A stretch of DNA of 64,000 bases from Spirochaetia bacterium (GCA_963675665.1 OY776510.1:352001-416000); one strand, 5' to 3'. Positions 23,135-42,644 are shown, numbered from the stretch's first letter. Translations and numbers: made by a program. Notes: generated by a model from the letters alone, not told the origin.

Positions 23135-23154
23135 TTAATACTCCCGTCCCTGCA

Positions 23155-25472: not shown

Positions 25473-25505
25473 ATTTCTGCCTCCGGTTTGAATATAAATA
25501 AATGC

Positions 25506-25533
25506 TTGACAATAATATGTACACGTGTACAAT
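25506..25533. promoter_or_regulatory. LacI-type operator palindrome within the divergent gal/LacI promoter
   Basis: Perfect 14-bp palindrome TGTACACGTGTACA (25518-25531) between TTGACA (25506) and TACAAT (25528). Confidence 0.65.
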
Positions 25534-25558
25534 ACTATGAGATGAGGCGCAGGTCAAT

Positions 25559-26554: not shown

Positions 26555-26570
26555 TCTTCTTTTCATGATC

Positions 26571-26624
26571 TTGACAAATTTCCATGATAATTATATATTT
26601 ACATATGAACAATTGCTCATATGT
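26571..26624 (+). promoter_or_regulatory. Sigma70 promoter plus SmtB/CzrA-type operator
   Basis: TTGACA (26571), 17-bp spacer, TATATT (26594); near-perfect palindrome ACATATGAACAATTGCTCATATGT (26601-26624). Confidence 0.8.
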
Positions 26625-26641
26625 TCAAGCATGGAGGCGAA

Positions 26642-26995
26642 ATGACTGAGAATGAAATTAAAATATCATGCAACCTGACGGAAAATGATGCCGGAGAACT
26701 GAGAAAAAAATTTCCCATAGAAGAGGAAATCCAGGATCTTTCAGAGTTCTTCAAGGTTTTCGGTGATTCGACCCGCCTCAGAATTCTTTTCCTGCTTAAA
26801 GAAGGAGAATTCTGCGTTCATGACATATCAATAATGGTTGACATGAACCAGACGGCAGTAAGCCATCAGCTGAAATCACTCAGACAGGCGCGACTGGTAA
26901 AATACCGGAAAGACGGGAAACAGGTTTTTTATTCGCTTAATGATGAGCATATCAACGAGATACTGGCCATCGGACTCCGTCATATAAATGAATAA
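26642..26995 (+). CDS. ArsR/SmtB metal-sensing repressor
   Basis: FFKVFGDSTRLRIL, FCVHD, QTAVSHQL, alpha5-type DEH...HINE; start ATG 26642 after GGAGG. Confidence 0.92.
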   Translation: MTENEIKISCNLTENDAGELRKKFPIEEEIQDLSEFFKVFGDSTRLRILFLLKEGEFCVHDISIMVDMNQTAVSHQLKSLRQARLVKYRKDGKQVFYSLNDEHINEILAIGLRHINE

Positions 26996-27025
26996 TATAA
27001 CGGCTGATTTTTACAGGAGAAACTG

Positions 27026-28378
27026 GTGATAATTACTTATATAAAACTTTTTTTAAGCGAAGCAGTGTCGCTCTTCTTCGATATGGCTCCATATATCATG
27101 CTTGGCATAGGTATTGCCGGACTGCTGCATGTAATTCTGAGCAAGGATTTTGTAGCCCGGCATATCGGAGGCAATAATATTGCTTCTGTTTTTAAGGCTG
27201 CTCTTTTCGGCGTTCCTCTGCCGTTATGCTCATGCGGAGTGGTTCCTACTGCAGTCTATCTGAAAAACTCGGGCGCCTCAAAAGCCGCTGTTACATCATT
27301 TCTTATATCAACGCCTCAGACGGGGATAGACAGTATCTCCGCAACCTGGGGAATGCTGGGCCCGGTATTCGCCGTATTCAAAGCCTTTGCAGCCCTGATA
27401 ATAGGAATGGCCGGAGGAATGGCCGATTATCTGCTGGACAGGAAGGCGGAAACAAAAGGCCCTGTTTCCGGCGCCCCAACAGCAAACAACCGCAGCGTTG
27501 TAGATACTGAAGGGATAACTCAATACAAGGGAGCAGGCGGAAAGATAAAAGAAGCCTTTAATTATGCTTTCTTTGAGCTTCTCGATGATATTGCTGTAAA
27601 CTTTATTATCGGCCTTGCAATAGCCGCAGTTATATCAATTGTAATTCCTGATAACTTCTTCGAAGGATCTTTTCTTTCAAATCCGCTGGTGAGCATGGCT
27701 GCAATGGTAATAATCGGGATACCCATGTATATCTGCTCAACCTCAAGCATTCCGATTGCCGTTGCATTGATTGTGAAAGGAATATCTCCCGGCGCCGCCT
27801 ATGTCTTCCTGGTGGCGGGACCGGCAACAAACGCTGCTTCCCTGGCAATAATTGGCAGGGCGCTAGGAAGAAAGACGACGATCAGGTATCTTATAACAAT
27901 AATTTCCGGTTCGCTTGTATTCGGCTTTACCATGGACCTTATCTATACACAACTCGGGATATCCCCGTTCGGCGCTGCCATGGCCCACCATCACGGCGAA
28001 ACGGCTCCGGGGCCTTTTCTGACGGCAGTATCCGTTTTCTTTCTGATAATGCTGATTGTACTGTTTTATCGAAGGATAAGAACAAAAATTAAAGGAGACC
28101 GATCGAAATGCGAATGCGGCGGGGAAGAAAGCTGTGAAACTGATAAATCCGTTAAGGAGAAAATAATGACGAGAATAAATATTGAAGGAATGAGCTGCAG
28201 CCACTGCACTGCAAGCGTTGAAAAGGCCCTGAGTACGGTAAGCGGAATAAATGCAATAGCTGTCAGCCTCTCGGGCAAATATGCTGATATCGACGGAGAA
28301 TTTGATCAGTCAGCTGCCGAAGCTGCAATCAGAAACGCAGGCTATGAGGTTGCAGGAAGCAGGGAACAACCTTTTTAA
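27026..28378 (+). CDS. ArsP/DUF318-type (SO_0444-like) metal efflux permease with C-terminal HMA domain
   Basis: GVPLPLCSCGVVP, STPQTGIDS, PMYICSTSSIPIA, GPATN; His/Cys-rich loops; GMSCSHC HMA motif. Confidence 0.85.
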   Translation: MIITYIKLFLSEAVSLFFDMAPYIMLGIGIAGLLHVILSKDFVARHIGGNNIASVFKAALFGVPLPLCSCGVVPTAVYLKNSGASKAAVTSFLISTPQTGIDSISATWGMLGPVFAVFKAFAALIIGMAGGMADYLLDRKAETKGPVSGAPTANNRSVVDTEGITQYKGAGGKIKEAFNYAFFELLDDIAVNFIIGLAIAAVISIVIPDNFFEGSFLSNPLVSMAAMVIIGIPMYICSTSSIPIAVALIVKGISPGAAYVFLVAGPATNAASLAIIGRALGRKTTIRYLITIISGSLVFGFTMDLIYTQLGISPFGAAMAHHHGETAPGPFLTAVSVFFLIMLIVLFYRRIRTKIKGDRSKCECGGEESCETDKSVKEKIMTRINIEGMSCSHCTASVEKALSTVSGINAIAVSLSGKYADIDGEFDQSAAEAAIRNAGYEVAGSREQPF

Positions 28379-28407
28379 GCGAACGTTTATATAATGATTC
28401 GGAACCA

Positions 28408-30018
28408 TCAATATACACTTTTTCTGTATTCAGTCGGGGTTACGCCGAAGTACTTCTTGTATACCCTGAAAAAATAATCGGGTTCGTTGTATCCGACTTT
28501 ATAACAAATCTCAGAGACATTTATTTCGGTTTCTTCCAATAGCCTGTTGGCTTCCTTCATTCTCACCTTCGTGAGGTATTTAACAAAGTTAACTCCCGTC
28601 TTTTCCTTGAAAATCTTGCTGAAATACTGCGGGCTCAGCAACACGCTCTCGGCCAGATCTTCAAGTGAAATCTCGGTATAGTAATGACTGTTTATATACT
28701 TTTTCACCCTGTCCATTATTCGTTCAATCTTGTCTTCATGACTGCTGCCCAGCAGATCTATAGCTTCATCAACAGATTTCTGTATTATCTTTTTCAGCCT
28801 TACAATACCGTCAAGCGATTTAATTTCTTCATAGACATTAATATTGAGGATGTCATATTCCCGGGTTATTTTTAACTTGTCGATAATCAGCTTCTGAATA
28901 TCGGTTATCATTGAATTCATATAGACCCGGGTATTGACCAGATTATCCGATTCCCGGTTTATCAGGATAAACCAGTTGAATATATCCTCAATATAATTAT
29001 GACAAGATTCTTTATCTCCCATTTTAATCGCGAATATCAGGCCCTCTTCTTTATGGGCCGGATATCTGTCAATATCTCTCAACTCAATAGCAATATCGTT
29101 ACACTGCCTGATGGATTTTGTATTTTCCAGCGACATTAGATCCTTGTTGGCTTCTTCATATGCGAAGACAAGGTTATTAATGCCCTTGTAGGGATTGCTC
29201 ATTCCCATGTCTACTTTCTCTTTATATAAATTCCCGATTCTTGTACATAACCGGGAACCGGTTTTCATTGAATAGGTTCTTACGGAATATTCTTTTTTAA
29301 AATCTTTTGTTGAGATAATTAATGCTATTTTATTTGAGGAAATTATCGATAACGCACATTTGAACTCTTTATGCAATTCGCCTGATAAGAAATTGAAAAT
29401 TTGTTTTATCGTCGGCTCTCGTTTATTGTTATTATCAACGACAAAATCAATTTGCTCATGTATTCTGAACAGAATTACAATACCACTTGAAAAATCTTTA
29501 TCCATTATTTTGAAATAACTGGACATTTCTTCTTTAAAAATATTTCCCTCAACTGCCAGTGTCGTAAACTGACTTTCCACCAGAGGAAGAGCTACTTTTA
29601 ATTTATTGTCTAATAACTGTTTTGTTTTTCGTTCCTGCTCTTCTTTCTCTATCTTGAGTATTGTATTATCCAGAGCTTTTTTTAACTGTTCCAGGGTATA
29701 AGGTTTTAAGAGATAATTATCTATACCCAACACAATAGCATTATTCATATAATCAAAATCACTATAAGCGCTTGAAATAATTACATGTATTTCTTTTTCA
29801 TTTCCCTTGATAAATCTTGAAGCTTCAATTCCATTTAATATAGGCATTTTAATATCCATTATGACTATATCAGGAAGTTTCTGTTCGCACAATTTAACCG
29901 CATCTCTGCCGTTTTCGACTTCTCCGATTAATTCTATTTCGGGAAAATAATCTTCTATTAATTTTCTTAAACCGTTTCTTTCTATTTTTTCATCATCGGC
30001 AATTATTATGCTATACAT
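28408..30018 (-). CDS. Two-component response regulator, REC + AraC (YesN-like)
   Basis: IIIADDE, DIVIMDIKMP, YLLKP; C-terminal SPQYFSKIFK...VGYNEPDYF.R.YKK..GVTPTEYR. Confidence 0.93.
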   Translation of the reverse strand: MYSIIIADDEKIERNGLRKLIEDYFPEIELIGEVENGRDAVKLCEQKLPDIVIMDIKMPILNGIEASRFIKGNEKEIHVIISSAYSDFDYMNNAIVLGIDNYLLKPYTLEQLKKALDNTILKIEKEEQERKTKQLLDNKLKVALPLVESQFTTLAVEGNIFKEEMSSYFKIMDKDFSSGIVILFRIHEQIDFVVDNNNKREPTIKQIFNFLSGELHKEFKCALSIISSNKIALIISTKDFKKEYSVRTYSMKTGSRLCTRIGNLYKEKVDMGMSNPYKGINNLVFAYEEANKDLMSLENTKSIRQCNDIAIELRDIDRYPAHKEEGLIFAIKMGDKESCHNYIEDIFNWFILINRESDNLVNTRVYMNSMITDIQKLIIDKLKITREYDILNINVYEEIKSLDGIVRLKKIIQKSVDEAIDLLGSSHEDKIERIMDRVKKYINSHYYTEISLEDLAESVLLSPQYFSKIFKEKTGVNFVKYLTKVRMKEANRLLEETEINVSEICYKVGYNEPDYFFRVYKKYFGVTPTEYRKSVY

Positions 30019-30033
30019 TTCCCGCCCGCCGGA

Positions 30034-31512
30034 TCATATTGCTTCAACATTCCTGTTTGTATATGGGATCAATATTTTCACGAAAGTTCCATGTTTCTTT
30101 AAATTATTAATATGAAATAAATCTTTTCGTCCAAAAAAATATTCTATCCTCTTTTTTACATTATTAATTCCTATTCCCCCGTTATCGCTTGAGAGGATGT
30201 CCTGCAGTTTACGTTCATCAATTCCAACACCGTTATCGATAATTTCTATTACCGCCACATCTTCATCACAAAAACAGTCCGGATACACGTTTATCTCAAG
30301 GGTCCCCTTCTCCGGCATGGGTTCAATTCCGTGAATTATTGCATTCTCGACCAAAGGCTGCAGAATAAAATAAGGAACCCTGATATCCAGAAGCGAATTC
30401 TCAATATTAAATTTATAATCAAAATTTTCAAGAAACCTTGTTTTATAGATCAGGATATATTCTTTAATATTCTCAATTTCATCGCGTAAAAAAATTCTTT
30501 CCTTTCTTTCATTTTCCAGATTATACCTGAGCAGCTGTGATGTGGACTGGATTAAGCTGTTCGTGGTCATTGCATTTTCAATCATTGATATCTTTGATAT
30601 TGTATTCAGGGTATTAAAAAGAAAATGCGGGTTCATCTGTGATCTCAGCATTTTTATTTCCGCTTCCTTGATCATGTTTACATTTCTGAGGTTCTTCATC
30701 TCTTCTTCTTTAAGTTTCTTTTCAAGTTCAGACTGATCTATTATTTTCTGTATTAGTAACCTGATCTTTCGCAACATTTCGTTAAAGGAATTTGCCAGTA
30801 CTGAAATTTCATCATTGGATTTGACGATTACCTCGGACACATTAATATCTCCTGAAGCAAATCGTTCAGCTTTTTTTGATAAATTCATTACCGGAGTTGA
30901 TATATGTTCCGAGAACTTGTAAATATAAAATACCAATAATGAAATCAACATTATCAAAGAGAAAACCAGCATAATATTGAGTTTTTCACCCAGGCTGCTC
31001 ATTTTTTCATATAAAGCGGAACTGTCGTCAAGAAGCGTTGAGACAATAAGATCTATTCTTTTATTAATATATACCGCAACACTTCTGTTGTACTTGAGCG
31101 CATCATAATACGGCTCGCCTTTGCCGATCAGTATAAACAGCTTGTTTATATTATTTTCGTATGTCCCCAGCATATTCCCAAGACCATATATCTCCGACCA
31201 TCCCGCAGAATAATAAACCTTTTCAGCATAACGATTGACTTCAGAATGAAGATCTTGAAGTTCAATAATCTTTTCATTCCTTTTCTCCAACTCTTTCGAT
31301 CGTACAAATAATGAATTAAAGTCGTAATCCAGCCTGTTGAAAGATGCGGACAACTCTTTATAAAAAAACAAATTGTCCAGGATTTCCTTGTGTTCATTAA
31401 CAATATAATCATTATATATCATTACCCCGAACACAATTACGGTCATAACCGCAAAAGGTATAATTGACAATATAATCAGTTTCTTCTTTAAAGTCTTAAT
31501 TTGTAAAAACAA
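30034..31512 (-). CDS. Sensor histidine kinase (YesM/LytS-like, HAMP)
   Basis: Two TM segments, HAMP DEISVLANSFNEM, LRSQMNPHFLFNTLN, LQPLVENAIIHG, DNGVG, GIGINNV. Confidence 0.93.
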   Translation of the reverse strand: MFLQIKTLKKKLIILSIIPFAVMTVIVFGVMIYNDYIVNEHKEILDNLFFYKELSASFNRLDYDFNSLFVRSKELEKRNEKIIELQDLHSEVNRYAEKVYYSAGWSEIYGLGNMLGTYENNINKLFILIGKGEPYYDALKYNRSVAVYINKRIDLIVSTLLDDSSALYEKMSSLGEKLNIMLVFSLIMLISLLVFYIYKFSEHISTPVMNLSKKAERFASGDINVSEVIVKSNDEISVLANSFNEMLRKIRLLIQKIIDQSELEKKLKEEEMKNLRNVNMIKEAEIKMLRSQMNPHFLFNTLNTISKISMIENAMTTNSLIQSTSQLLRYNLENERKERIFLRDEIENIKEYILIYKTRFLENFDYKFNIENSLLDIRVPYFILQPLVENAIIHGIEPMPEKGTLEINVYPDCFCDEDVAVIEIIDNGVGIDERKLQDILSSDNGGIGINNVKKRIEYFFGRKDLFHINNLKKHGTFVKILIPYTNRNVEAI

Positions 31513-31562
31513 TTCCGCCCCTGTTAATGCTATTAATGATATTTAAAATTTTAAAGATTTAA

Positions 31563-33086
31563 TTAAACAACCCCCGTAGCAGCAGCCATTATCAATTCTT
31601 CAGTAGCTTCATCAGAATCAAATTCACGTACAATTGTGCCGTTATTTAAAACGACGAACCTGTCGCAAATGCCGAGCAGCTCCGGTAATTCGGAAGAAAT
31701 AATGATAAATGATACCCCGTCGCTTGTCAATTTGTTAATGATGTTGTAGATTTCGTATTTCGCCCCTACATCGATACCCCTGGTCGGTTCATCCAGGATC
31801 ATTATACGGGGCTGCTGCAGAAGCCATCTTGCCATGATTACTTTCTGTTGGTTGCCTCCGCTCAGGTTTTTGATCTTCGTCTCAACATCCGGCGCTTTAA
31901 TATTTAACTTATCCATAAGTTCATTAACAATCCCGGTTTCTTCTTTTCTTTTAATCACACCGGTTTTAAACATCCTGTTAAGCATTACTATGGTTGCGTT
32001 TTCCCTGATACTTAAAGCCGGAATTATTCCTGAAGCCCTTCGATCTTCAGTAAGCAAGGCTATACCACCGGAAATGGCCTTGCGTATGGAGTTTATTTTC
32101 TCCTTGTTTTTATTTACATAAATACTATAACCTGCTTCAATATCAAGATTCCCGAAAATTGCGTTTACCAGTTCGCTTCGTCCGGAGCCGACCAAACCAG
32201 CTATTCCCAGTATCTCGCCTTTTTTAAGTACAAAAGAAGCCGAATCAATAATTTTTTTACCGTCAATGTATTTATGCATAACAGTTAAATTCTCAATTTT
32301 TAAAACCTCGTCTCCAATATCACGATTTCGCTTTGGATACCGGTTTTCCAGAGATCTTCCGACCATCATTTTTATTACAAGATCTACATCAAAGTCTTTC
32401 TTCTCCAGAGTTCCAATCTTACACCCGTCCCTCATAACCGTTATACGATCGCTTATTTCCATAACCTCTTCAATCTTGTGGGATATATAAATACAGGAAA
32501 GCCCTGAATTTCTAAGCTCATTGATTATATTGAAAAGATATTCCTTTTCATTCTCAGTAAGAGATGATGTCGGTTCATCCAGAACCAGCAACCTGGGTTT
32601 TTTTATAACGGCCTTTGCAATTGCAACCATCTGTTGTCTGCTGGTGCTTAGATTCTTTATTTTTTCATGAACATCGGCATCCAGGCCAACTTTATCCAAA
32701 ATCTTCTCAGCATCGTCATACATTTTTTTCCAGTCGACCAGAACCCTGTTCTTTCTTCTGATATTACCCACAAGCACATTCTCACATACGCTTAAATCAG
32801 GAATAAGATCTATTTCCTGATAAATCATTTCTATCCCGGCGGCCTGGGCCTGACCAGGATTGTTAAAACTTACATTCTTCCCGTCGATAATTATTTCTCC
32901 CGAATAGGAAGATGAAGGGTAAGCACCGCTCAGTATTTTCATCAGGGTTGTTTTACCGGCCCCGTTTTCACCCACAATGGCATGAACTTCACCCTTCCTG
33001 ACATCCATGGATATCGAATCAAGAGCTTTCACTCCGATAAAACATTTATCAATGTTCTTTAATTCAAGTATAACTTTCTCAGCCAC
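31563..33086 (-). CDS. Sugar ABC transporter ATP-binding protein (CUT2, RbsA/XylG-like)
   Basis: GENGAGKTT, LDEPT, ISHK, GLVGSGRSEL, LSGGNQQK, LDEPTRGIDVGAK. Confidence 0.95.
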   Translation of the reverse strand: MAEKVILELKNIDKCFIGVKALDSISMDVRKGEVHAIVGENGAGKTTLMKILSGAYPSSSYSGEIIIDGKNVSFNNPGQAQAAGIEMIYQEIDLIPDLSVCENVLVGNIRRKNRVLVDWKKMYDDAEKILDKVGLDADVHEKIKNLSTSRQQMVAIAKAVIKKPRLLVLDEPTSSLTENEKEYLFNIINELRNSGLSCIYISHKIEEVMEISDRITVMRDGCKIGTLEKKDFDVDLVIKMMVGRSLENRYPKRNRDIGDEVLKIENLTVMHKYIDGKKIIDSASFVLKKGEILGIAGLVGSGRSELVNAIFGNLDIEAGYSIYVNKNKEKINSIRKAISGGIALLTEDRRASGIIPALSIRENATIVMLNRMFKTGVIKRKEETGIVNELMDKLNIKAPDVETKIKNLSGGNQQKVIMARWLLQQPRIMILDEPTRGIDVGAKYEIYNIINKLTSDGVSFIIISSELPELLGICDRFVVLNNGTIVREFDSDEATEELIMAAATGVV

Positions 33087-33114
33087 GATGCTTCTCCTTA
33101 TATTACTTCCGCAT

Positions 33115-34356
33115 TTACTCTGCTGTAACCGCTACTAAAAACTGTCCGGCCGTTTCAAGATGCGAGTTAATGTCAATTGAAGCAATTTTCCTGTCCACAT
33201 GGGGGTTGCTCCAGCTGAATTTCAGTAACTGCACTTTAACCCCGAGATTATGACAAAAGGAATTGTCTCCCTTCCATACAACCTCTGTGTTCTCGTCAAA
33301 ATCATTATCGGGAGTTTCCCACCAGTCAGCCGTGTTTCGTCCGTATACCAGCGGAATAATCTCTTTTTCGACGTCGGTGTAATTAATAACATATTCTCCT
33401 ATCTCTACATCCATATCCGTAAACCACCCGCAAGCGTGAAGGAAATGCAGCTTGTTACAACACTGTTCAACCTTTATCCCCCTGATACTCTCCGGATAAA
33501 TTGAACCGGTTCTTCTGAGAGAAATATTTCCTGCTGCAACCTGGATTAGTCCCCTGACATCAAAAGCAACGTCACCGAAAACCTGTATGCCTTTGGGAAC
33601 ATTCTGAAGATCATGACCTTCATGGTTGTGCCAGTCGTCGTCCAGCGATGCGGTATAATAATCAGATAAATCAACCAGCCTTTTATCAGCCCATTGATTT
33701 CTCGGCATTACAGTGTTTACAGGTTTCGAACCATCGGAAAAATTCAAATAAATAGTTTCAACCGGTTCAACAGTAACGGCCAGAAGGAAGGGCGCAGCCC
33801 CTGTTAACTCTGATATAAAATCAATGGTGTTAAGTTCCGCATCCGGAAGCGGATTATTTACAGTATATTTATAAAATATCAACTCGCAATCTGAAGAATT
33901 ATTCTTATAACCTTTCCAGGCAACATCTGCGTCGGTAAGACTTAAATCACCCGTATCCGCCGTTACTGTTTTTGTGTTTTTTCCGTAAATAATCGGGACT
34001 GTTCTTTTTCGGCCGTCTTTATAATTAAGTAAATAATACCCGATTTTCATCCCCTCTTCTTCCACGCCGGCTGAACCGTGAAGAAAATGCAGTTTGCGAA
34101 AATCGGTATTTACGCTAATACCGGTTACCGATACCGGATAATCGGTATTATTCTTTATATATTTTTTATTGCCCGCAAGCTGAATTATTCCTCTCACATC
34201 AAATGCAACATTTGAATATATTTGCAGTCCGGACGGGATGTTGCTGAAACTCAAATCGTCAGTCCCGTATATATTCTCATCGAGGTATCCGTTATAATAT
34301 TCCGATAAATCCAGTAAATCCGGAAATGCCTGCTTGCTTCTTTTTAAAATCTCCAT
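33115..34356 (-). CDS. Uncharacterised protein made of two tandem ~200-aa beta-rich domains (paralogue A)
   Basis: Internal duplication DLS.YY...FDVRG.IQ...KLHFLH...IG.Y...Y...P..YG.N...NP.....I.....FL.AVT.E; no signal peptide; start ATG 34356 after GGAGG. Confidence 0.8.
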   Translation of the reverse strand: MEILKRSKQAFPDLLDLSEYYNGYLDENIYGTDDLSFSNIPSGLQIYSNVAFDVRGIIQLAGNKKYIKNNTDYPVSVTGISVNTDFRKLHFLHGSAGVEEEGMKIGYYLLNYKDGRKRTVPIIYGKNTKTVTADTGDLSLTDADVAWKGYKNNSSDCELIFYKYTVNNPLPDAELNTIDFISELTGAAPFLLAVTVEPVETIYLNFSDGSKPVNTVMPRNQWADKRLVDLSDYYTASLDDDWHNHEGHDLQNVPKGIQVFGDVAFDVRGLIQVAAGNISLRRTGSIYPESIRGIKVEQCCNKLHFLHACGWFTDMDVEIGEYVINYTDVEKEIIPLVYGRNTADWWETPDNDFDENTEVVWKGDNSFCHNLGVKVQLLKFSWSNPHVDRKIASIDINSHLETAGQFLVAVTAE

Positions 34357-34394
34357 AGTTTTCCTCCGTTCCAATATCAACTCTCTATTATGGG

Positions 34395-34523
34395 GACTTC
34401 TAAAAACTGCAGTTTTTAGAAGTCTACTTCAGATGTAATGGATGTTTACTTATTGACTGATAAGGAAATAAGTAAACTCCAAGCAACCTCTAAAAACCCC
34501 AGTTTAGGATTTTTAGAGGTTGC
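34395..34523. repeat. Composite palindromic REP/MITE-like element (three consecutive hairpins) inside the ABC operon
   Basis: Perfect 30-bp palindrome GACTTCTAAAAACTGCAGTTTTTAGAAGTC (34395-34424); 11-bp stem GTTTACTTATT/AATAAGTAAAC (34444-34477); 14-bp stem GCAACCTCTAAAAA/TTTTTAGAGGTTGC (34483-34523). Confidence 0.8.
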
Positions 34524-34524
34524 C

Positions 34525-35487
34525 TTATTCTATATCCCCGGTTTTTCTTCTTTTATAATGATCTATTCCAACAGCCAGGATTATGATTATTCCCGTTACA
34601 ATATTTTGCCAATAGGTTGAAATTCCCATGAGAACTATACCGTTCGATATTACGCTCAACAGTACAGCCCCTATCACCGTGCCGAGTATTGTTCCGGTTC
34701 CTCCGAACATGCTTGTTCCGCCTATTATTACAGCTGCTATTATCGTCATCTCCCAGCCCAGTCCCAACGAAATCTGGGCTGAGGTAATTCTTGATGTCAT
34801 AATAATTCCGGAAAAAGTTGCACATACAGCCGAAAGAACATATACCGAGATCTTAACCATATCAACATTTATTCCGGACAATCTCGAAGCTTCATTGTTC
34901 CCGCCCACGCAATAGACATAACGCCCGTAAACTGTATGGTTCAGCACAAAGACCGCCAATAGAGCAAGAGCTGCCGCAAACCAGACCGAATAAGGTATTC
35001 TTAAAAAAGCCCCGCTGCCGATCAGATTAAACCCGGCCGGCAACGGAAACACAGGTTTGCCTTTTGTAACAACATTCATAATACCTCTTGCGATATACAT
35101 ACTTCCAAGCGTAACTATCATTGCGGGTATTTTAAGTTTTACAATTATAACCCCGTTAAAAACACCGAACAGGGCCCCGACAAAAACACCCGCGGCTATT
35201 GATAAAGGTACCGGCATATTAAAATGCTTCATACAGATTGCGGTTATTAATCCTCCAAGACCGATTAATGAACCGACGGTAAGATCCAGACCTCCTGAAA
35301 TAAAAACAAAGGTCACGGCTATTCCGACAATTACCAGATACGAGCTTGTTCGTAAAATATTTACAATATTTATCCAGGAATAAAACGACTGATTGACCAA
35401 TGCTATTAATACACATATTGCCGCCAGCACAATAATTATTCCCAATTCATTTATTGTTTTTATATTTAGCATAATTTTCTTTTGCAT
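34525..35487 (-). CDS. Sugar ABC transporter permease (RbsC-like)
   Basis: GGLDLTVGS, IPAMIVTLG, YGRYVYCVGGNNEASRLSGI, IAAVIIGGTSMFGG. Confidence 0.95.
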   Translation of the reverse strand: MQKKIMLNIKTINELGIIIVLAAICVLIALVNQSFYSWINIVNILRTSSYLVIVGIAVTFVFISGGLDLTVGSLIGLGGLITAICMKHFNMPVPLSIAAGVFVGALFGVFNGVIIVKLKIPAMIVTLGSMYIARGIMNVVTKGKPVFPLPAGFNLIGSGAFLRIPYSVWFAAALALLAVFVLNHTVYGRYVYCVGGNNEASRLSGINVDMVKISVYVLSAVCATFSGIIMTSRITSAQISLGLGWEMTIIAAVIIGGTSMFGGTGTILGTVIGAVLLSVISNGIVLMGISTYWQNIVTGIIIILAVGIDHYKRRKTGDIE

Positions 35488-35609
35488 AATTTTCCCTTTT
35501 TCTGAACATAAACCTGACGATATTTTTCTGTTATTATTCCCGCACTATCCTTCAGTGTTTCAGACAAATTATCGGGGAGGGAATAATACCCTCCCCTGTC
35601 AATCTCCTT

Positions 35610-36875
35610 CTATACAACTGTAATAGCAAATAAAATCGGCGCGGAATTTTCAAGTTTGGAGATATAGTCTATTTTTGTAATCTCAACATCCGGATAAGGA
35701 TTCTGCCATGCATATTTAATTACCCTTGTTCTTAATCCGAACCTTCTGCTTGCGGCATTTGAGCCGAACCATGCTTCTTCAGCATCGCTGACCCTCCCTT
35801 CTTCAACGCGTTCCCACCAGTCCATTACGTTGACTCCGTATTCTACGGGAATAACCTCCTGCTTATTATTGGCATAATGCACAATGTATTCCGCTATTCT
35901 TGTTCCGCGTTCCGAATCGAAAGCGCAGGCATGCAGAAAATTAACGGTTTTTCCGGATCTGTTGATTTTGATACCCTTAAGCTCTTCAGGTAATGCAAGA
36001 CCTGTAATTTTCAGGGAGGTTTTTCCTCCCGCAAGTACCAGCAGTCCCCTCACATCAAATTTTACTCCGCCGAATTCCTGAATTCCCTTGGGCAGATCAT
36101 GCAGGTCGTGCCCGGCATGATTAAACCAGTCGTCATCAGGCGAAGCGGCAAAATAGTCAGACAGATCTATCTGTTCAGGCCTTGCTTCGGGACTTCTCGG
36201 AATTATATCGTTGTAGATCCTGATGGAATCAAACCACTCATGCTCCATTGTTGTCTGGAATGTTTCCATTGTCAGGGCGATCAGGAAAGGAGCCGATTCG
36301 GTTAAATCTGAGATAAAATCAATCTCTTTAATTTCCAAATCCGGAAGCGGATTGTTTACTGTATATTTATAGATCTTTCGGCCGTCGGTTATGCTAACAA
36401 CATCTGAACCCAGGGGCTGAAAACCCTTTTTCTCTACTGTAAAATCCAGCACATTTTGATTGTAAACAATGGGAATTCTTTCCGCTGCCCCGTTTTCATA
36501 ATGAATAATATATTCACCAATTTTTGTGTCGTCGGCAACGGAACCTGCCGTCCCCTGAAGGAAATCTATTTTTTCCGCTTTAAAGTTTACTTTAATTCCC
36601 TTAACAGATTCAGGATAATCATACCCCGTTATTTCGGCTGTATTTTTCCCGGCCAGCTGAATCATTCCCCTGAGGTCAAAGGCCCCCCGGAAATATGCAT
36701 GAATTCCTTTAGGCAGCAGGGAAAGATTAACGCCGGGCCGGCCGGTCCAGTCATCATCAAGGGCTGTTGTATAGTAATCCGACAGATCTACAAGATCATC
36801 TATAGCCTGCCTGCTGCGCGCAGGGATTTTATTTACAGGTTCAGCCTTGTTTAAATTTGTATCAGAGTTTTTCAT
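35610..36875 (-). CDS. Uncharacterised protein made of two tandem ~200-aa beta-rich domains (paralogue B)
   Basis: Same duplicated domain as 33115-34356; both contain YKYTVNNPLPD (31/33 nt identity at 33841-33873 vs 36339-36371); no signal peptide. Confidence 0.8.
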   Translation of the reverse strand: MKNSDTNLNKAEPVNKIPARSRQAIDDLVDLSDYYTTALDDDWTGRPGVNLSLLPKGIHAYFRGAFDLRGMIQLAGKNTAEITGYDYPESVKGIKVNFKAEKIDFLQGTAGSVADDTKIGEYIIHYENGAAERIPIVYNQNVLDFTVEKKGFQPLGSDVVSITDGRKIYKYTVNNPLPDLEIKEIDFISDLTESAPFLIALTMETFQTTMEHEWFDSIRIYNDIIPRSPEARPEQIDLSDYFAASPDDDWFNHAGHDLHDLPKGIQEFGGVKFDVRGLLVLAGGKTSLKITGLALPEELKGIKINRSGKTVNFLHACAFDSERGTRIAEYIVHYANNKQEVIPVEYGVNVMDWWERVEEGRVSDAEEAWFGSNAASRRFGLRTRVIKYAWQNPYPDVEITKIDYISKLENSAPILFAITVV

Positions 36876-36918
36876 TGTAATTACCTCAAGTAAAATATTT
36901 AATTTTTGATTGTAAAAT

Positions 36919-36959
36919 CAGGAATAATATATGAAGAAAATCTTCTTATATTATTCCTG
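36919..36959 (-). other. Long intergenic hairpin after the binding-protein gene (mRNA stabiliser or partial terminator)
   Basis: CAGGAATAATATA...TATATTATTCCTG 13-bp outer stem plus inner GAAGA/TCTTC. Confidence 0.6.
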
Positions 36960-36974
36960 TAAGAGTTAAACCAT

Positions 36975-37976
36975 TTATTTATTTTTATATGTATCGATAT
37001 TCTCTTTGGTTACAAGCGTAACTCCTGAATCCACAATATCCGGAACGGAATTGCCGTTTAAATGCTCAATAATGTTCTTTGCTCCAAGATATCCCATTTT
37101 ATAAAAATCCTGGGCCATTACTCCGTATATCGTGCCTTCTTTAACCGGAGCAAGATTTGTCTCAACATCATCCATTCCTATTGCCATAACTTTTTCCGTT
37201 AAACCCATCTCCTTCAGAACAATTCCATAGCTTGCCGGGCCCGCTCCTTCTGTTCCAAAGATTGCGTTTATCTGGGGGTTTGCTGTCAGCATTGCCGTTA
37301 AAACCTCAATAGTCTTTACAGCATCTGCATCGTTATCCTGAACATCAACTATTTCAGCTTTATCAAGATTTTTCTCTGCAAGATATTTTTTTAAACCTTC
37401 TACCTGCAGGATCTGATCCTGAGCATCAAGGTTGCTCATTATAACCCCGATTTTTAATTCTTCACCGACTTTCTCATGCAGCGCAGCGGCTTCAGCCATT
37501 CCGCATGCAATCTTGTCAGTTCCTATAAAAGATATCCTCTGAGACGGATCTTCTGCATCACAACATACGCATGTAACTACTATTCCGGCCTCTTTTGCTC
37601 TTTTTAACGCTTCAGTAAAAGCGCTCGGAGCAAACGGGTCTACAATTATACCGTCAGGTCTCTCGGCAATGGCGGTTTCCAGAGCTTCCAGTGTTTTTTC
37701 AAGGCCATGGTCATCGGCACCTATCCACCTTCCGTCAAAACCGAATTCCTCAATGGCTGCGTCCATTCCGTATTTTGCTCCCAGCCATACCGGATGGGCC
37801 GTCATCGGCGTTACGAAAATAATTCTTACAGGTTTTTCGTCCGCTGCTTTCTGTGATACAGCGCTGCTTTTTTCTTTTGAGCAACCCGACAATCCCATAA
37901 AAAGAACCATGCTAATGCAGATCGCAAACAGAAATAATCTTGTAATCCCCTTCTTCATTCTTTTTCTCCTGTTCAT
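36975..37976 (-). CDS. Sugar ABC transporter substrate-binding lipoprotein (type I PBP)
   Basis: Lipobox LSGC; HPVW...G...A, PDGII, FIGTD, IGMDD, QDFYKMGY, VDSGVTLVTKEN. The start may be the second Met (37958). Confidence 0.92.
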   Translation of the reverse strand: MNRRKRMKKGITRLFLFAICISMVLFMGLSGCSKEKSSAVSQKAADEKPVRIIFVTPMTAHPVWLGAKYGMDAAIEEFGFDGRWIGADDHGLEKTLEALETAIAERPDGIIVDPFAPSAFTEALKRAKEAGIVVTCVCCDAEDPSQRISFIGTDKIACGMAEAAALHEKVGEELKIGVIMSNLDAQDQILQVEGLKKYLAEKNLDKAEIVDVQDNDADAVKTIEVLTAMLTANPQINAIFGTEGAGPASYGIVLKEMGLTEKVMAIGMDDVETNLAPVKEGTIYGVMAQDFYKMGYLGAKNIIEHLNGNSVPDIVDSGVTLVTKENIDTYKNK

Positions 37977-38102
37977 ACAGACTCCCTTTTTGATAAACGG
38001 GAACGCCTGCTTATTTTAATACTATTTATAGTATTCTGTTTATGAAATCGAATTTTATTTAATTATCAAAAAGATAACTGTTAAAACCGATTTTGTAATT
38101 GT

Positions 38103-38317
38103 ATTTTAATATGTAAAATTTCACTCTGCATCATGAGATTCTTAGTATTAACTGTAATTTTTTAATATGTAATTTTAATTATTTAATTGTTTTCGATATT
38201 AATAATCAAACTGGTCCTGATTCTGTTTACCATTTTGTTGCCTGAATATTGGTATTAATTTTTTACAGCAAATGAGAAAAATCTCATGATGTCCGTGCAG
38301 CAGTTAACCGTTATAAT
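38103..38317. promoter_or_regulatory. Mirror-symmetric divergent promoter pair with a duplicated 39-bp activator-like site
   Basis: 38129-38167 and the reverse complement of 38253-38291 align without gaps at 29/39 (core CATCATGAGATT 12/12). Each is 21 bp from a -10 hexamer: TATAAT at 38312 on +, TAAAAT at 38108-38103 on -. Confidence 0.7.
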
Positions 38318-38365
38318 TTAGACAACAAAATCATTTTTAATCTAAATAAATAACAGAGGTACCCA

Positions 38366-39547
38366 ATGAGAGCATTTAATTATTATTCACCTACAAATAT
38401 TGTATTTGGAAACGGTCGTATAAGTGAAATCGGAAATCTAATCAACAGTGAATGCAGAAAACCGCTGCTTGTCATGAATAAAGGTCCTTTCAGACAGAAT
38501 GGAATTTATGATCAAATCAAAAAGTATATTGTTTCAAGTGGTCGTGAATTAATAGAGATGAATGATATAGATTCCAATCCCAGACTTTCAAGCGCAAGAG
38601 AAGGAACAAGAATCTGTAAAGAGAAAAAAGCCGACTGCATTATTGCAGTCGGCGGAGGAAGCGCAATGGACTGCGCCAAGGTCATTGGAGCTTCGGCTGC
38701 ATCGGGAACAGATCCTTACGAACTTCTCTGGGGGTCCAAACCTGAAGTAACTGTATCGCTGCCCGTCATAGCTGTTCCAACTATTGCCGCAACAGGTTCT
38801 GAATGCAACCCCACTGCCGTAATTGTTAATGATGAAACAAAAGAAAAGTATTTCTGCAACTGCATTCATCCTGTAACAACTATTCTTGATCCGGAACTGA
38901 CCTTAACTGTTCCTCTCAAACTGGCAATATGGGGCACAATGGACATCTTAAGCCATACATTTGAATACTACTTTAACGGAGATACAAATTCGGAATCACA
39001 GCTGCGTTTATCAGAATCGATTATACATGCGACAATGAAAGCGCTTGATGATCTTGTTAAAAATCCCGATGACGTACAGGCCCGTGGAGAATTAATCTGG
39101 TGTTCAATCATGGCCTGGGGCGGACTTACAAAAATCGGCCGCGGCGAACCGGACATGGCCTGTCACGGACTGGAGGAATCATTCTCAGGCTGGTTTGATA
39201 CTCACCACGGAGCATGCCTCGGTGTGTTGACTCCGAGATGGATGGATATTGTAAGCAAAAAAATACCGGAGCCGTTTGCCAGGTTCGGCCGGAATATTTT
39301 TTACATAGAAGAAAAAGATAACATAAAAGCGGCTGCCGCGGCTGTTGCCGAATATAAAACATGGCTTAAACAGGTTGGAGCCCCCGACACATATTTTGAT
39401 ATAGGGTCAAAAGATTTCTCTGATGAAGATCTAAAACATGTAGCAGAAACAAGCTGCAGAATATATAACGGTGCTGTCGGAAGGTTATATAAATTTGATA
39501 AAGAAGAATCCCTCAACCTTCTTAAAAGTGGAAAGGTAAAGCTATAA
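38366..39547 (+). CDS. Iron-containing alcohol dehydrogenase (BdhA/YqhD-like)
   Basis: FNYYSPTNIVFG, NPRLS, AVGGGSAMDCAK, TIAATGSE, DILSH, CHGLE, HHGACL. Confidence 0.9.
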   Translation: MRAFNYYSPTNIVFGNGRISEIGNLINSECRKPLLVMNKGPFRQNGIYDQIKKYIVSSGRELIEMNDIDSNPRLSSAREGTRICKEKKADCIIAVGGGSAMDCAKVIGASAASGTDPYELLWGSKPEVTVSLPVIAVPTIAATGSECNPTAVIVNDETKEKYFCNCIHPVTTILDPELTLTVPLKLAIWGTMDILSHTFEYYFNGDTNSESQLRLSESIIHATMKALDDLVKNPDDVQARGELIWCSIMAWGGLTKIGRGEPDMACHGLEESFSGWFDTHHGACLGVLTPRWMDIVSKKIPEPFARFGRNIFYIEEKDNIKAAAAAVAEYKTWLKQVGAPDTYFDIGSKDFSDEDLKHVAETSCRIYNGAVGRLYKFDKEESLNLLKSGKVKL

Positions 39548-39702
39548 CTCCATCCTTACAACTTAATAAAATTCTGATTCCGCCTGATCAGGGAAGACTC
39601 CTGTTAACCTGATTTCGGCGGGGTCTTTTCCCCAGCCTTTTAACCGTTTCTTTTTATACCGAAGGAGATTGGTTTGCAGAGCATACAAACAGTCCCGGAA
39701 GT

Positions 39703-40419
39703 TTACCGTAACCCTTTAAGTCTGCCGCGCAGTAGACCCACTCTCTCTTCCGTTGGAGGAAGAACTCCGTCAAGGGGATACTCCTTCCCGCAATTCGCCC
39801 ACTTGTTTTTTCCCATATCGTGATACGGAAGAAGTTCCACCCTTTCGGGAGGGTTATCTGATTCAAGTATTTCAGCCAGATGATCTACCTGTTCAACAGT
39901 ATCTGTATAACCCTCAACAATTACCTGTCTTACCCGGTATCTTATGTTGCTGTTCTGCAGATACTCCAGGCAGCAGAATGCCGAATCCCCTGAAAATGAG
40001 CAAATGCGCCCGTATTGGTTCATGTCGGAATGCTTGATGTCCAGAATTACAAGATCAACCAGGCGAAACAGCTCGGCGACTTTCCTGTTAAAAACGGATC
40101 CGGAAGTATCGACAGCCGTGCTGATTCCGTATTTCTTCAAGGACGCTGCCGCTTCGAAAAGAAAATCTCCCTGCAGCAGCGGCTCGCCGCCGGAAAATGT
40201 AACTCCGCCGTCCTCTCCGTAGTACTCCCGGTAAGACAGGGCCGTAGAAACCACCTTACCAACAGTATAGAGTTCACCGCCGTTGAGACTCCAGCTGTCG
40301 CGGTTATGGCAGTAAACGCACTGCATGTTACAGCCCTGAAGAAAAAAAACGGTTCTTATCCCGGGCCCGTCCAGGGTTCCCATGGTTTCTATAGAATGAA
40401 TTCGACCCTGAATCATCAT
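39703..40419 (-). CDS. pflA: Pyruvate formate-lyase activating enzyme (radical SAM)
   Basis: [44 protein letters not shown]. Confidence 0.93.
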
Positions 40420-42644
40420 ATTCTCTCAAAATAGGTTCTGGCGATAATTTCTTCCTTCTGAATTTTTGTAAGCTTGTGAAAATTTACGGCATAGCCGGAA
40501 ACCCTGACAGTCAGGTTCGGATACTTTCCCGGATTCTCCATTGCATCTTTTAACGTCTGCCTGTCCAGTACATTCACATTAAGATGATGCCCTGATTTTT
40601 TAAAATATCCGTTGATAATGTTGACAAGGTTCTTTTCCGACGACTGCTCATCCGGACCAAGCGTCCGCGGTGAAACCGAGAAAGTGCAGGAGATACCGTC
40701 GCGACAGCAGTCGAATGGAATCTTGGATACCGAGTTAAGCGAAGCAAGGGCCCCCATCTTTTCCCTGTTATGCATCGGGTTTGCTCCCGGAGCAAATGGT
40801 TCGCCGCGCTTCCTGCCGTCCGGGGTTGAACCTGTTTTTCTGCCGTAAACAACATTAGACGTAATAGTGAGAATTGACAGGCTGTGTTCGGCTTCTCTGT
40901 ATGTCTCCGTTTCCCTCAACAGGGAAATAAACTCCCCGGTCAGTTCGGCTGCAATTGTGTCTACCCTGTCGTCATCATTACCGAACTTCGGGAAATCGCC
41001 CTCTATCGAGTAATCGGTAATCAGCCCGGTTTTATCGGTAACCGGAGTAACCCTGGCATATTTAACAGCCGAAAGGGAATCGGCGGCGACCGACAGCCCG
41101 GCTATACCGAAGGCCATAAAGCGTTTTACATCGGTATTGTGCAGGGCCATCTGGGTTTTCTCGTAGGCGTATTTGTCATGCATATAATGAATAATATTCA
41201 TCGTGTTGACATATTTTTCACATAACCACTTCAGGTAGAAGGAAAACCGGCTGCGAACCCTGTCATAGTCAAGCGGACCCTGGTTCAGCGGCTCCCGGGC
41301 CGGGGCGATATATTCCCCGTCCAGTTCATCTCTGCCGCCGTTAAGCGAAACCAGCAGGGTTTTGGCCAGGTTGCAGCGGGCTCCGAAAAACTGCATTTCT
41401 TTTCCTATTTTCATGGCCGATACGCAGCAGGCTATGGCGTAATCATCGCCGTAATCGCTGCGCATAAGATCATCGTTTTCATACTGGATTGAATCAGTAT
41501 CGATTGACACCCTTGCGCAGAATTCCTTGAACCCGGAAGGAAGATCTTCCGACCACAGCACAGTAAGGTTCGGTTCTGCCGAGCTTCCGAGATTGTAAAG
41601 GGTCTGAAGCATTCTGTAGGAGGTTCTTGTTACCATAGGAACACCTTCTTCGGTCATTCCACCTATAACCTCGGTAATCCACATCGGATCTCCTGCAAAA
41701 AGCTCATTGTAATCCGGCGTGCGCAGCTGACGGGCACAGCGCAGTTTCAGAACAAAATCATCGACAATCTCCTGGATCCGGCTTTCAGTAATAACACCCT
41801 CGCTGAGGTCCCGTTCAAAATAGACGTCGAAGAAGGTACTGACCCGTCCGAGAGACATAGCCGCCCCGTTCTGCTCCTTGATTGCGCCGAGGTACGCAAA
41901 ATAAGTCCACTGCACGGCCTCTTTCCCGTTTGCAGCCGGCCTCGATATATCGATTCCGTAGAGCAGCGCCATTTTTTTCAGCTTTTCAAGAAAATCTATC
42001 TGTCTGTACAGTTCCTCAAGCAGACGGATAATTTCGTCGTTCATCTGCTTCTTCGACAGGTTGTCCTTGTCGCTGATTTTTTCGCCGATAAGCCTGTCGA
42101 CACCGTAAAGCGCTACTCTTCGATAATCGCCGATTATACGTCCCCGGCCGTAGGCATCCGGCAGCCCGGTAATAAGCCCCGAACGCCTGAGGGTTTTGAT
42201 TTCGTCGTCATAAACACGGAAAACCCCGTCGTTATGCGTGGTCCTGAACCGGAAATGGTTCTCAATCTCTTCCGAAAGGACCGCCCCGTAGGAAGCGCAG
42301 GCGTCCCGGGCCATCCGTATTCCGCCGAAAGGGTTTACACCTCTCTTCAAAGGTTCGTCGGTCTGAAGTCCGACGATAATTTCGTTGTCTTTATCAATGT
42401 ATCCTGCCGGATAACTGAGCAGCGACGAGACCTTTTCGGTGTCGATGGACAGCACCCCGTTGTTTTCGCTTTCAGTCTGCAACAGCTTATCAAGCCGGGC
42501 ATTTAACAATTCGGTTCGTCGGGTCGGGCCGCACAGGAAATTGCCGTCTTCATAATAGGGGGTATAATTAGTTTTAATGAAATTCCGGACATCGATTTCT
42601 TCAGTCCAAAGTCCTGCATTGAAATTTCGCCATTCTTTTCGCAT
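40416..42644 (-). CDS. pflB: Pyruvate formate-lyase (formate acetyltransferase)
   Basis: [26 protein letters not shown] catalytic Cys pair, RVSGYAV glycyl-radical motif. Confidence 0.96.

Follow-up and report, generated by a model that had tools for sequence, protein, structure and literature searches.

Sugar ATP-binding cassette (ABC) operons can encode, alongside the transporter, small sugar-converting enzymes such as the mutarotases RbsD, FucU and RhaM. In Clostridium beijerinckii, the XylFII-LytS-YesN system accompanies the xylFGH importer genes, and PMC8050422 describes D-xylose sensing by XylFII/LytS and control of xylFGH. A 64,000-nt stretch of DNA from a Spirochaetia bacterium (GCA_963675665.1 OY776510.1:352001-416000; hereafter the window, to whose positions our coordinates refer) carries between 28408 and 39547 an island of eight genes that invites comparison with both. 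Like XylFII-LytS-YesN with xylFGH, the island combines a Peripla_BP_4 substrate-binding protein (SBP), an RbsC-type permease, a double ATPase, a PF06580 sensor and an AraC-type regulator. Unlike that system, it has the transporter order SBP-permease-ATPase and a single SBP with no separate sensor SBP, and two genes for tandem-domain (TD) proteins, which we call TD-A and TD-B, are interleaved with the transporter genes. The TD genes resemble those for RbsD, FucU and RhaM in position only, as predicted cytoplasmic accessory genes lying between transporter genes, whereas the folds and sizes of the proteins are unrelated.

The island consists of seven co-directional minus-strand genes, in the order SBP, TD-B, permease, TD-A, ATPase, YesM-like kinase and YesN-like regulator, and one divergent plus-strand gene for an iron-containing alcohol dehydrogenase (Fe-ADH). 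This order and these families had been proposed in an initial annotation of the DNA, and Pfam and NCBIfam scans bear them out. We propose that the block reached this genome by horizontal transfer as an operon for a sugar importer of the ribose/xylose/glucose (CUT2) type, under the control of a dedicated YesM/YesN-like two-component system and with the Fe-ADH as its partner. TD-A and TD-B would be anciently duplicated cytoplasmic proteins, each a fused pair of beta-sandwich domains, that bind an imported hexose-like sugar at a conserved site in the C-terminal domain. Most likely they would also convert this sugar, with an architecture like that of a fused AziU3/U2 pair and the activity of an anomerase, an isomerase, a hydrolase or an elimination-type enzyme; the Fe-ADH would then act on a resulting aldehyde or alcohol. 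That the two proteins act on the imported sugar in the cytoplasm, more likely as enzymes than as mere binders, is the reading that we tentatively favor.

TD-A and TD-B are 42% identical (E 2e-115), and each is made of two copies of one domain of ~200 aa. The four copies that the initial annotation had recognized from the sequence alone are pairwise 33-43% identical with E values of 1e-39 to 1e-64, far beyond chance. Both genes were first called as open reading frames (ORFs) of 421 codons, that of TD-A spanning 33115-34380; the likely TD-A start is the ATG at 34356, which lies 6 nt past a GGAGG and yields a protein of 413 aa, as long as the TD-A ortholog in another genome. A hydrophobic N-terminus is absent from both proteins, and neither has a twin-arginine translocation (Tat) motif with a hydrophobic stretch after it. 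Because the stop-to-stop frames of 435 and 437 codons are just 14 and 16 codons longer than the 421-aa ORFs, a signal peptide cannot hide upstream, and the earlier remark that the proteins lack one is upheld. Both proteins are predicted to be cytoplasmic.

Of 121 stand-alone tandem homologs, 84 lack a signal-like N-terminus and the other 37 have one, in several cases with a lipobox, so the family appears to work on both sides of the membrane. It is conceivable, but highly improbable, that TD-A and TD-B are exported non-classically and, in the manner of surface glycan-binding proteins, capture glycans outside the cell and hand them to the lipoprotein SBP. The signal-bearing homologs and the extracytoplasmic placement of fused relatives (see below) would fit such a role, whereas the two proteins themselves have neither a signal peptide nor room for one nor a complete Tat signal, and a Pfam scan finds no secretion genes within the island.

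The initial annotation had regarded the island as a candidate undescribed system, and the TD family is undescribed in the libraries that we searched. TD-A and TD-B match no Pfam, NCBIfam or PADLOC family, and PADLOC likewise returned no family for the Fe-ADH. Pfam searches of 65 homologs at E <= 1 gave scattered weak matches only, the most frequent being MEKHLA (10 of 65, best E 5e-4), which we took to be chance matches. Neither the two window proteins nor the 65 homologs match a known glycoside hydrolase (GH) family in Pfam or NCBIfam, or any Pfam model of a carbohydrate-binding module (CBM). The ESM Atlas returned nothing but clusters named ‘hypothetical protein’, the name given to TD homologs by every source, and searches of the literature library covered found no paper describing the domain family, although word searches are of limited reach for a family that has no name.

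AlphaFold models built with 64-65 homologs (predicted local distance difference test 94.9 and predicted template-modeling score 0.90 for TD-B; 91.2 and 0.87 for TD-A) both show two beta-sandwich domains. When each model was searched against 48161 PDB representatives, the sole chain with Z >= 8 for both was 7wuw_A, from AziU3/U2 of Streptomyces sahachiroi. The C-domain of TD-B (residues 232-421) aligns to this chain at Z 13.8 (root-mean-square deviation 2.7, 156 of 197 residues) and the N-domain of TD-A (residues 19-210) at Z 14.7 (deviation 2.9, 160 of 197 residues). The next rows fall to Z 7.2-7.3, and in a second structural run TD-B matched 8gs1_A at Z 14.4. Foldseek likewise matches two distinct ~200-aa chains of the AziU2-U3 complex with probability 1.00.

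The AziU3/AziU2 structures (7wuw, 8gs1) thus resemble the TD proteins in their beta-sandwich fold and in comprising two units of ~200 aa, which are separate subunits there and fused in TD. Because both domain types share the fold with both AziU subunits, a TD protein looks, as modeled, like a fused version of the two-subunit pair. AziU3/U2 belongs to a natural-product pathway rather than a sugar operon. A review (PMC12559475) describes its function as that of an aziridine synthase working by sulfate displacement. This chemistry is not transferable to TD, given that the structural alignments show 12-15% identity and that a profile of the four window domains, searched against all PDB sequences, found no AziU match up to E 10 and returned three weak unrelated matches. 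The two models and AziU3/U2 have a shared fold and probably a distant kinship, not a common function that can be carried over.

More generic similarities were also recovered. CBMs, Cry-toxin domain III, ephrin-receptor ligand-binding domains and other jelly rolls score Z 6-7, matches that the search tool rates as common; the CBM families with this general beta-sandwich likeness are CBM6, 8, 15, 16, 22, 29, 35, 36, 51 and 86. Foldseek searches with the two-domain model listed Cry-toxin domain III, reelin, capsid double jelly rolls and BcsB, all with low template-modeling scores, and we set these rows aside as shared architecture only. The double jelly-roll GH172 structure 8ah3 appeared as another weak Foldseek row (E 3.2e-4, template-modeling score 0.16).

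The two halves of the tandem proteins are unequally conserved. In an alignment of 65 tandem proteins from several phyla, with a mean column identity of 48%, nine columns are invariant in domain 1 and 22 in domain 2. The latter include, in TD-B numbering, R227, D237, D248, H256, R276, E297, D352, W353, W354, W369, W390 and D403, and TD-A and TD-B both keep the domain-2 invariants. The motifs DLS, YN, LPxG, FDVRG, HFLH, DWW, AWxG, WxNPxP, IDFxS and APFLxAIT recur across architectures, and HxxGHD is particular to the tandem C-domain; several of the family motifs are no longer present in the N-domains of TD-A and TD-B. Domain 2 therefore carries a putative site of conserved polar and aromatic residues, and the combination of one intact and one degenerate half is, by analogy, the pattern seen in pseudo-dimeric enzymes and binding proteins.

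The arrangement of the island is not confined to this genome. We sampled 78 TD-encoding loci from one-genome-per-species contigs, and the transporter genes of the island adjoin TD in only one of them, L003, from a metagenome-assembled genome (MAG) of the Christensenellaceae. There, all eight genes lie on one strand in the order Fe-ADH, SBP, TD-B, permease, TD-A, ATPase, kinase and regulator, with spacers of 2-201 nt; the Fe-ADH gene, divergent in the window, is co-directional and just upstream of the SBP gene. Protein identities to the window are given in Table 1. A quickly computed maximum-likelihood tree of 57 tandem proteins joins the TD-A proteins of the window and L003 on long branches (100 by the Shimodaira-Hasegawa-like approximate likelihood ratio test, SH-aLRT), and the two TD-B proteins sit in a clade of seven rows with the same support. 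These groupings indicate that the duplication into TD-A and TD-B took place before the two hosts diverged, and TD-A appears from the sequences to evolve faster.

Five further TD-A-type proteins (P0270, P0315, P0271, P0280 and P0279) and five TD-B-type proteins (P0003, P0312, P0314, P0318 and P0319) come from clusters whose longest contigs have the same sizes (291384, 27681, 12007, 170099 and 11768), from which we infer that the pair is co-located on five more contigs. A metagenome scan with TD-B found seven loci, none above 51% identity, and no further ABC arrangement was read from them. The possibility that the arrangement is unique, which would have told against an uptake system, is countered by the identical gene order in L003 and by the additional inferred pairs.

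The initial annotation had also described the TD proteins as standing in place of catabolic enzymes. Pfam and NCBIfam scans find no glycosidase, kinase or isomerase family within the island, as stated there. The phrase ‘instead of catabolic enzymes’ may nevertheless be overstated, since the TD proteins are themselves possible enzymes and since L003 has a block of sugar genes directly upstream of the Fe-ADH gene. This block (L003:121-7117, same strand) encodes SBP_bac_1, two permeases, a GH130 protein (GH130 being the beta-mannoside phosphorylase family), a phosphomutase and mannose-6-phosphate isomerase. The GH130 block and the Fe-ADH/ABC/TD block of L003 may form one regulon.

Two lines of evidence suggest that the island was acquired from elsewhere, as the initial annotation had surmised from its visibly AT-richer composition. 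First, the GC content is 0.33-0.43 over 28-39 kb, compared to 0.45-0.50 in both flanks. Second, homologs are absent from the sampled kin: TD homologs were found in none of five genomes of the same genus and in none of five others of the same family, and close SBP homologs (E <= 1e-60) in none of 400 genomes of the phylum. One weak TD match (E 8e-6) occurs among 30 genomes of the class, six of 400 other genomes of the phylum match the TD profile at E <= 1e-10, and the host genome itself holds just these two TD genes. No noteworthy direct or inverted repeats were found at the island borders, and no mobility genes were seen. Horizontal acquisition of the whole block is the simplest reading of these sequence features and a likely one.

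One member from the same phylum (G253, L105:7476-8051) is a signal-less, single-domain TD protein of 191 aa that matches the profile at E 1.3e-69. Its gene stands between one for cation efflux and others for a thioesterase and a methyltransferase; transposase genes are close by, and there is no sugar context. The flanks of the window island are functionally unrelated to it: on one side (22145-28378) lie a Leloir galE/galK/galT cluster with a LacI regulator and an ArsR/ArsP-HMA (permease) pair, and on the other (39703-42644) pyruvate formate-lyase and its radical-SAM activase.

The non-TD components of the island, judged by their domains, are ordinary members of their families. The transporter has the parts of a CUT2 importer, namely an exported Peripla_BP_4 SBP whose N-terminus is a lipoprotein signal (…FMGLSGC), a BPD_transp_2 permease and an ATPase with two ABC domains. 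The SBP is closest among solved structures to the sugar ABC binding protein 2h3h (5e-31), XylFII (5xsd/5xsj, 1e-29) and CbpA (7x0g). Every NCBIfam equivalog match of the transporter parts falls under its cut-off, including those of the ATPase to xylose and multiple-monosaccharide ATPases, its best, and those of the permease to ribose and arabinose permease models. The kinase and regulator have the HAMP, PF06580 and HATPase_c domains and the receiver and AraC helix-turn-helix (HTH) domains, respectively, of YesM/YesN pairs. The Fe-ADH has the N- and C-terminal domains of the butanol dehydrogenase/YqhD group, and its nearest solved relatives are the NADH-dependent butanol dehydrogenase 1vlj (3e-76) and then YqhD.

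Table 1. Coordinates of the island genes and intergenic features in the window, with the protein identity of each gene product to its L003 counterpart. dG, folding free energy; z, z-score.
Feature	Position	Strand	Evidence or property	Identity to L003
YesN-like response regulator, 536 aa	28408..30018	-	Response_reg 2.6e-23, HTH_18 4.3e-23 (Pfam)	47%
YesM/LytS-like sensor histidine kinase, 492 aa	30034..31512	-	HAMP + His_kinase PF06580 + HATPase_c	47%
CUT2-type double ABC ATPase, 507 aa	31563..33086	-	two ABC_tran stretches (Pfam)	67%
TD-A tandem-domain protein	33115..34356 (open from TTG 34380)	-	likely 413 aa, ATG 34356	49%
Permease/TD-A spacer hairpin 2	34395-34424	-	dG -15.6 kcal/mol, z -5.4	
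Permease/TD-A spacer hairpin 1	34481-34525	-	dG -30.1 kcal/mol, z -7.4	
RbsC-type ABC permease, 320 aa	34525..35487	-	BPD_transp_2 PF02653 2.9e-44	71%
GC-rich hairpin after TD-B	35574..35596	-	dG -21.4 kcal/mol, z -2.7; without clean U-run	
TD-B tandem-domain protein, 421 aa	35610..36875	-	GAGG 8 nt before ATG	61%
AT-rich hairpin, SBP/TD-B spacer	36919..36959	-	dG -20.9 kcal/mol, z -5.8	
Lipoprotein SBP, 333 aa	36975..37976	-	Peripla_BP_4 PF13407 1.9e-45; lipobox LSGC	72%
AT-rich divergent SBP/Fe-ADH intergenic region; presumed promoters	37977..38365	.	GC	
Fe-ADH (butanol-DH/YqhD type), 393 aa	38366..39547	+	PF00465 2.9e-43, ADH_Fe_C PF25137 1.1e-18	67%

The spacers around the TD genes measure 99, 122 and 144-168 nt, compared to 15-50 nt at the other junctions, and they contain strong hairpins without clean U-tracts. 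The two hairpins between the permease and TD-A genes share a 22-nt palindrome, TCTAAAAACTGCAGTTTTTAGA (34399-34420 and 34489-34517), which occurs at ten sites (nine identical and one variant) in the 5.15-Mb genome, whereas its reversed control occurs at none. These hairpins are consequently a dispersed repeat of the host and not an operon-specific signal; the palindrome looks like a hairpin of the repetitive extragenic palindromic (REP) type that has colonized the low-GC island. A promoter scan was uninformative (39 sites compared to 36.2 expected, not above shuffled sequences), as were terminator-like sites with regard to operon structure (18 compared to 10.6 expected), and Rfam gave no matches at E <= 0.1 over 27500-40500. 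Co-transcription of the island genes is likely.

Beyond this island, the family is large. The profile of the four window domains, searched against representative proteins of 50% identity clusters, matches 4917 representatives at E <= 1e-3, 3067 at E <= 1e-10 and 893 at E <= 1e-30, and members occur in Verrucomicrobiota, Planctomycetota, Acidobacteriota, Bacteroidota, Chloroflexota and Bacillota. We listed 150 representatives, two of them already known. Among the 148 new ones, 109 have one TD domain, 34 have two and five have three or more; 57 are at least 600 aa long, and 45 are single-domain proteins shorter than 350 aa.

A Pfam scan of 35 mostly long members (33 from the list plus P0005 and P0060) revealed the partners of the domain. 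Eight carry a protein kinase domain, mostly with WD40/TPR repeats; two carry nSTAND1, three AAA_35 and three a BlaR1-type Peptidase_M56 domain; ten have WD40 and/or TPR only. DUF2092, CarboxypepD_reg alone, and Redoxin with Rhodanese (P0060) each occur once, and six proteins have no other family. By simple hydropathy scanning, a single transmembrane-like segment lies just behind the kinase domain in seven of the eight kinases, and such a segment follows the NTPase in four of the five STAND/AAA_35 proteins; in all three BlaR1-type proteins the TD domains come after the membrane domain. Because a transmembrane-like segment precedes TD in these kinases, NTPases and M56 proteins, the fused TD domain is predicted to be mostly extracytoplasmic, where sensors sit. 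In addition, all three distant TD-like matches examined from the host’s own phylum lie near the 3' end of the frame within secreted proteins of 1057-1370 aa that have GH42-like regions or GH39-like and Laminin_G_3 regions. These secreted GH-like and kinase fusions agree with the statement in the initial annotation that similar domains serve as accessory modules of large proteins, either carbohydrate-active ones or kinases.

Forms with three TD domains include the stand-alone P0005 (645 aa) and the nSTAND1-WD40-TPR giants P0123 and P0133 (~2650 aa), in which the three copies follow a single transmembrane-like segment. The STAND fusions also prompted a reading of TD as an anti-phage defense component, which we dropped because PADLOC gives no match and because TD in the STAND and AAA_35 proteins mostly lies beyond a membrane segment, like a sensor.

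The placement of the fused domains brings in a competing explanation that we consider possible and nearly as likely as an enzymatic role, namely that TD-A and TD-B are non-catalytic sugar sensors of lectin or CBM type that tune the transporter (for example, its ATPase) or signaling, or that serve as sugar buffers. On this account, the receptor-kinase and BlaR1-type fusions would possibly use TD as their sensor. The extracytoplasmic position of fused TD behind a single transmembrane segment, or at the C-terminus of secreted GH-like proteins, is what such binders would show, and CBMs and the surface glycan-binding proteins of Bacteroides are likewise found C-terminal on secreted GH-like proteins or as lipoproteins after SusC-SusD-GH30. 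In Bacteroidales polysaccharide utilization loci (PULs), a lipoprotein form of TD (lipobox LSSCSN) does follow SusC-SusD-GH30, where a surface glycan-binding protein is usually encoded. The jelly-roll-like fold, with its Z scores of 6-7 to many CBMs, and the tryptophans W353, W354, W369 and W390, which suit sugar stacking, point the same way.

Several observations fit a binder less well. The window TD proteins, unlike CBMs and surface glycan-binding proteins, are stand-alone and predicted to be cytoplasmic, and the majority of the tandem homologs (84 of 121) likewise have no signal-like N-terminus. To our knowledge, cytoplasmic non-catalytic sugar binders are unusual inside importer operons. 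The eight invariant charged residues of domain 2 are more suggestive of a catalytic or metal-binding site, the sole strong structural relative is an enzyme, and one TD protein, described below, is embedded among cytoplasmic enzymes.

The genomic neighborhoods of the family provide information on its possible substrates. We compared 20 tandem-type loci, defining as near the ORFs within +/-4.5 kb (15 loci) or +/-3.5 kb (five loci) of TD; near ORFs were picked by hand (72 of the 136 listed in the 15 loci plus 23 in the five tandem loci, 95 in all), leaving out TD genes and mostly short ORFs. GH families account for 12 of these 95 near ORFs, in seven of the 20 loci, and for none of 86 ORFs of at least 150 aa located more than 6 kb from TD in the same loci. 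The difference gives Fisher p values of 4e-4 by ORFs and 8e-3 by loci, which are rough figures given the hand-picked ORFs and related loci.

The seven loci include two from Bacteroidales with the order SusC-SusD-GH30-TD followed by GH30 or GH5 (L004 and L005), and loci with GH30-TD in Phycisphaerales (L006), Laminin_G_3-GH81-TD in Pirellulales (L008), GH5-TD in Acidobacteriota (L011) and GH5…TD-GH3 in Sedimentisphaerales (L023). The seventh, from Christensenellaceae (L019), reads SBP-permease-permease-GH3-TD-GH94-phosphomutase. Pfam scanning of metagenome loci L082 and L087 revealed further GH30-TD pairs, and L083 probably has the SusC-SusD-GH30-TD order of L004, as deduced from identical ORF sizes. 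The GH30 neighbors are nearest to SrfJ (2wnw), human glucosylceramidase and 5ngk, which we take to be the Bacteroides beta-1,6-glucanase BT3312. The GH94 protein of L019 is a chitobiose-phosphorylase look-alike (1v7v, 1100 bits), and the TD protein of this locus is signal-less and stands amid cytoplasmic enzymes behind an ABC importer. Enzymes of families GH30, GH81, GH5, GH3 and GH94 are those expected for fungal or algal wall polymers, and these neighbors point to a tie between the TD family and beta-linked glycans. The three roles offered in the initial annotation (enzyme, cytoplasmic binder or transporter accessory) are thereby narrowed to a glycan-linked function, either catalytic or binding.

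Additional features of these loci were noted. The L019 gene (L019:4206-18698) is a second TD gene in the same MAG as L003, in an apparent chitobiose/N-acetylglucosamine cluster that also encodes a ROK-like protein and glucosamine-6-P isomerase and has YesM/YesN-like genes on both sides. Genes for an extracytoplasmic function (ECF) sigma factor and a FecR-type anti-sigma factor open the SusC-SusD-GH30-TD loci of Bacteroidales (L004:1168-3207 and L005:1276-3187), and the L005 SusC carries an STN domain, an arrangement that suggests trans-envelope signaling control. An ORF of 403-420 aa with no Pfam match follows TD in three GH30 loci (L004:11571-12782, L005:12775-14037 and L082:9505-10716), and these ORFs may encode a shared PUL partner.

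Not all relatives keep such company. Loci from Acidobacteriaceae MAGs (L010, L013, L017, L018 and L022) have a redox/sulfur context that misfits the glycan picture. It could be imagined that the TD genes of the island are passengers with a role apart from the transported sugar, linked to redox or sulfur metabolism or to general stress. The acidobacterial homologs, which adjoin thioredoxin, AhpC-TSA, rhodanese and Nitro_FeMo-Co genes, and the Redoxin-Rhodanese fusion P0060 are in keeping with this idea, as is the fact that the window TD genes are set off by long hairpin-bearing spacers of 99-168 nt. We nevertheless regard it as improbable. The interleaved order is kept in L003 at 47-72% protein identity, with a permease/TD-A spacer of 35 nt there; the closest relatives of the window TD proteins fall in the clade where TD-A and TD-B occur as a pair; and within the operon there is no conspicuous promoter or terminator signal.

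Our preference for cytoplasmic enzymes that act on the imported sugar has four grounds. First, the TD proteins are signal-less, and the importer operon that encodes them contains no catabolic gene besides theirs. Second, their relative in L019 stands in a row of cytoplasmic enzymes. Third, domain 2 contains many invariant charged residues. Fourth, the sole strong structural relative is a two-subunit enzyme. Weighing against this preference, the most frequent architectures of the family put TD outside the membrane or at the C-terminus of secreted GH-like proteins, a placement typical of non-catalytic sensor or binding modules and not of enzymes. The comparison of near and far GH genes is rough, with hand-picked near ORFs and loci that are not independent, and in 13 of the 20 tandem loci no GH gene lies close to TD. 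An acidobacterial clade (100 SH-aLRT) sits amid thioredoxin/AhpC-TSA, rhodanese, Nitro_FeMo-Co and PAS/sigma-54 activator genes. AziU3/U2, at only 12-15% identity and unfound by the sequence profile, lends no chemistry, and the link of the Fe-ADH to the TD proteins rests on adjacency in two genomes only.

If TD-A and TD-B are indeed enzymes, a more specific and on balance unlikely proposal is that TD is the founder of a new enzyme family, in which the fused halves form an AziU3/U2-like pseudo-heterodimer and the conserved Asp/His/Glu/Trp site of domain 2 catalyzes leaving-group or ring reactions of beta-linked hexoses. Candidate reactions would be anomer conversion, the formation or opening of anhydro-sugars, or an unusual glycoside cleavage. 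Were this true, TD would be a new CAZy-type family of ~4,900 representative clusters, with TD-A and TD-B working as a pair in a dedicated import operon, and bacteria of the Planctomycetes-Verrucomicrobia-Chlamydiae group would have re-used the module in receptor kinases, STAND ATPases and BlaR1-like transducers, where it would form the ectodomain that senses sugars.

The novelty of the island lies in its two interleaved TD proteins, its transporter and regulators being ordinary. The small, self-contained operon of SBP, permease, ATPase, two TD proteins and a dehydrogenase offers a tractable route to a ligand and an activity. Assigning either to TD would annotate components of PULs, accessory modules of glycosidases and ectodomains of receptor kinases in phyla that are poorly understood, and we consider the TD family a good lead to a new family of carbohydrate-handling proteins.

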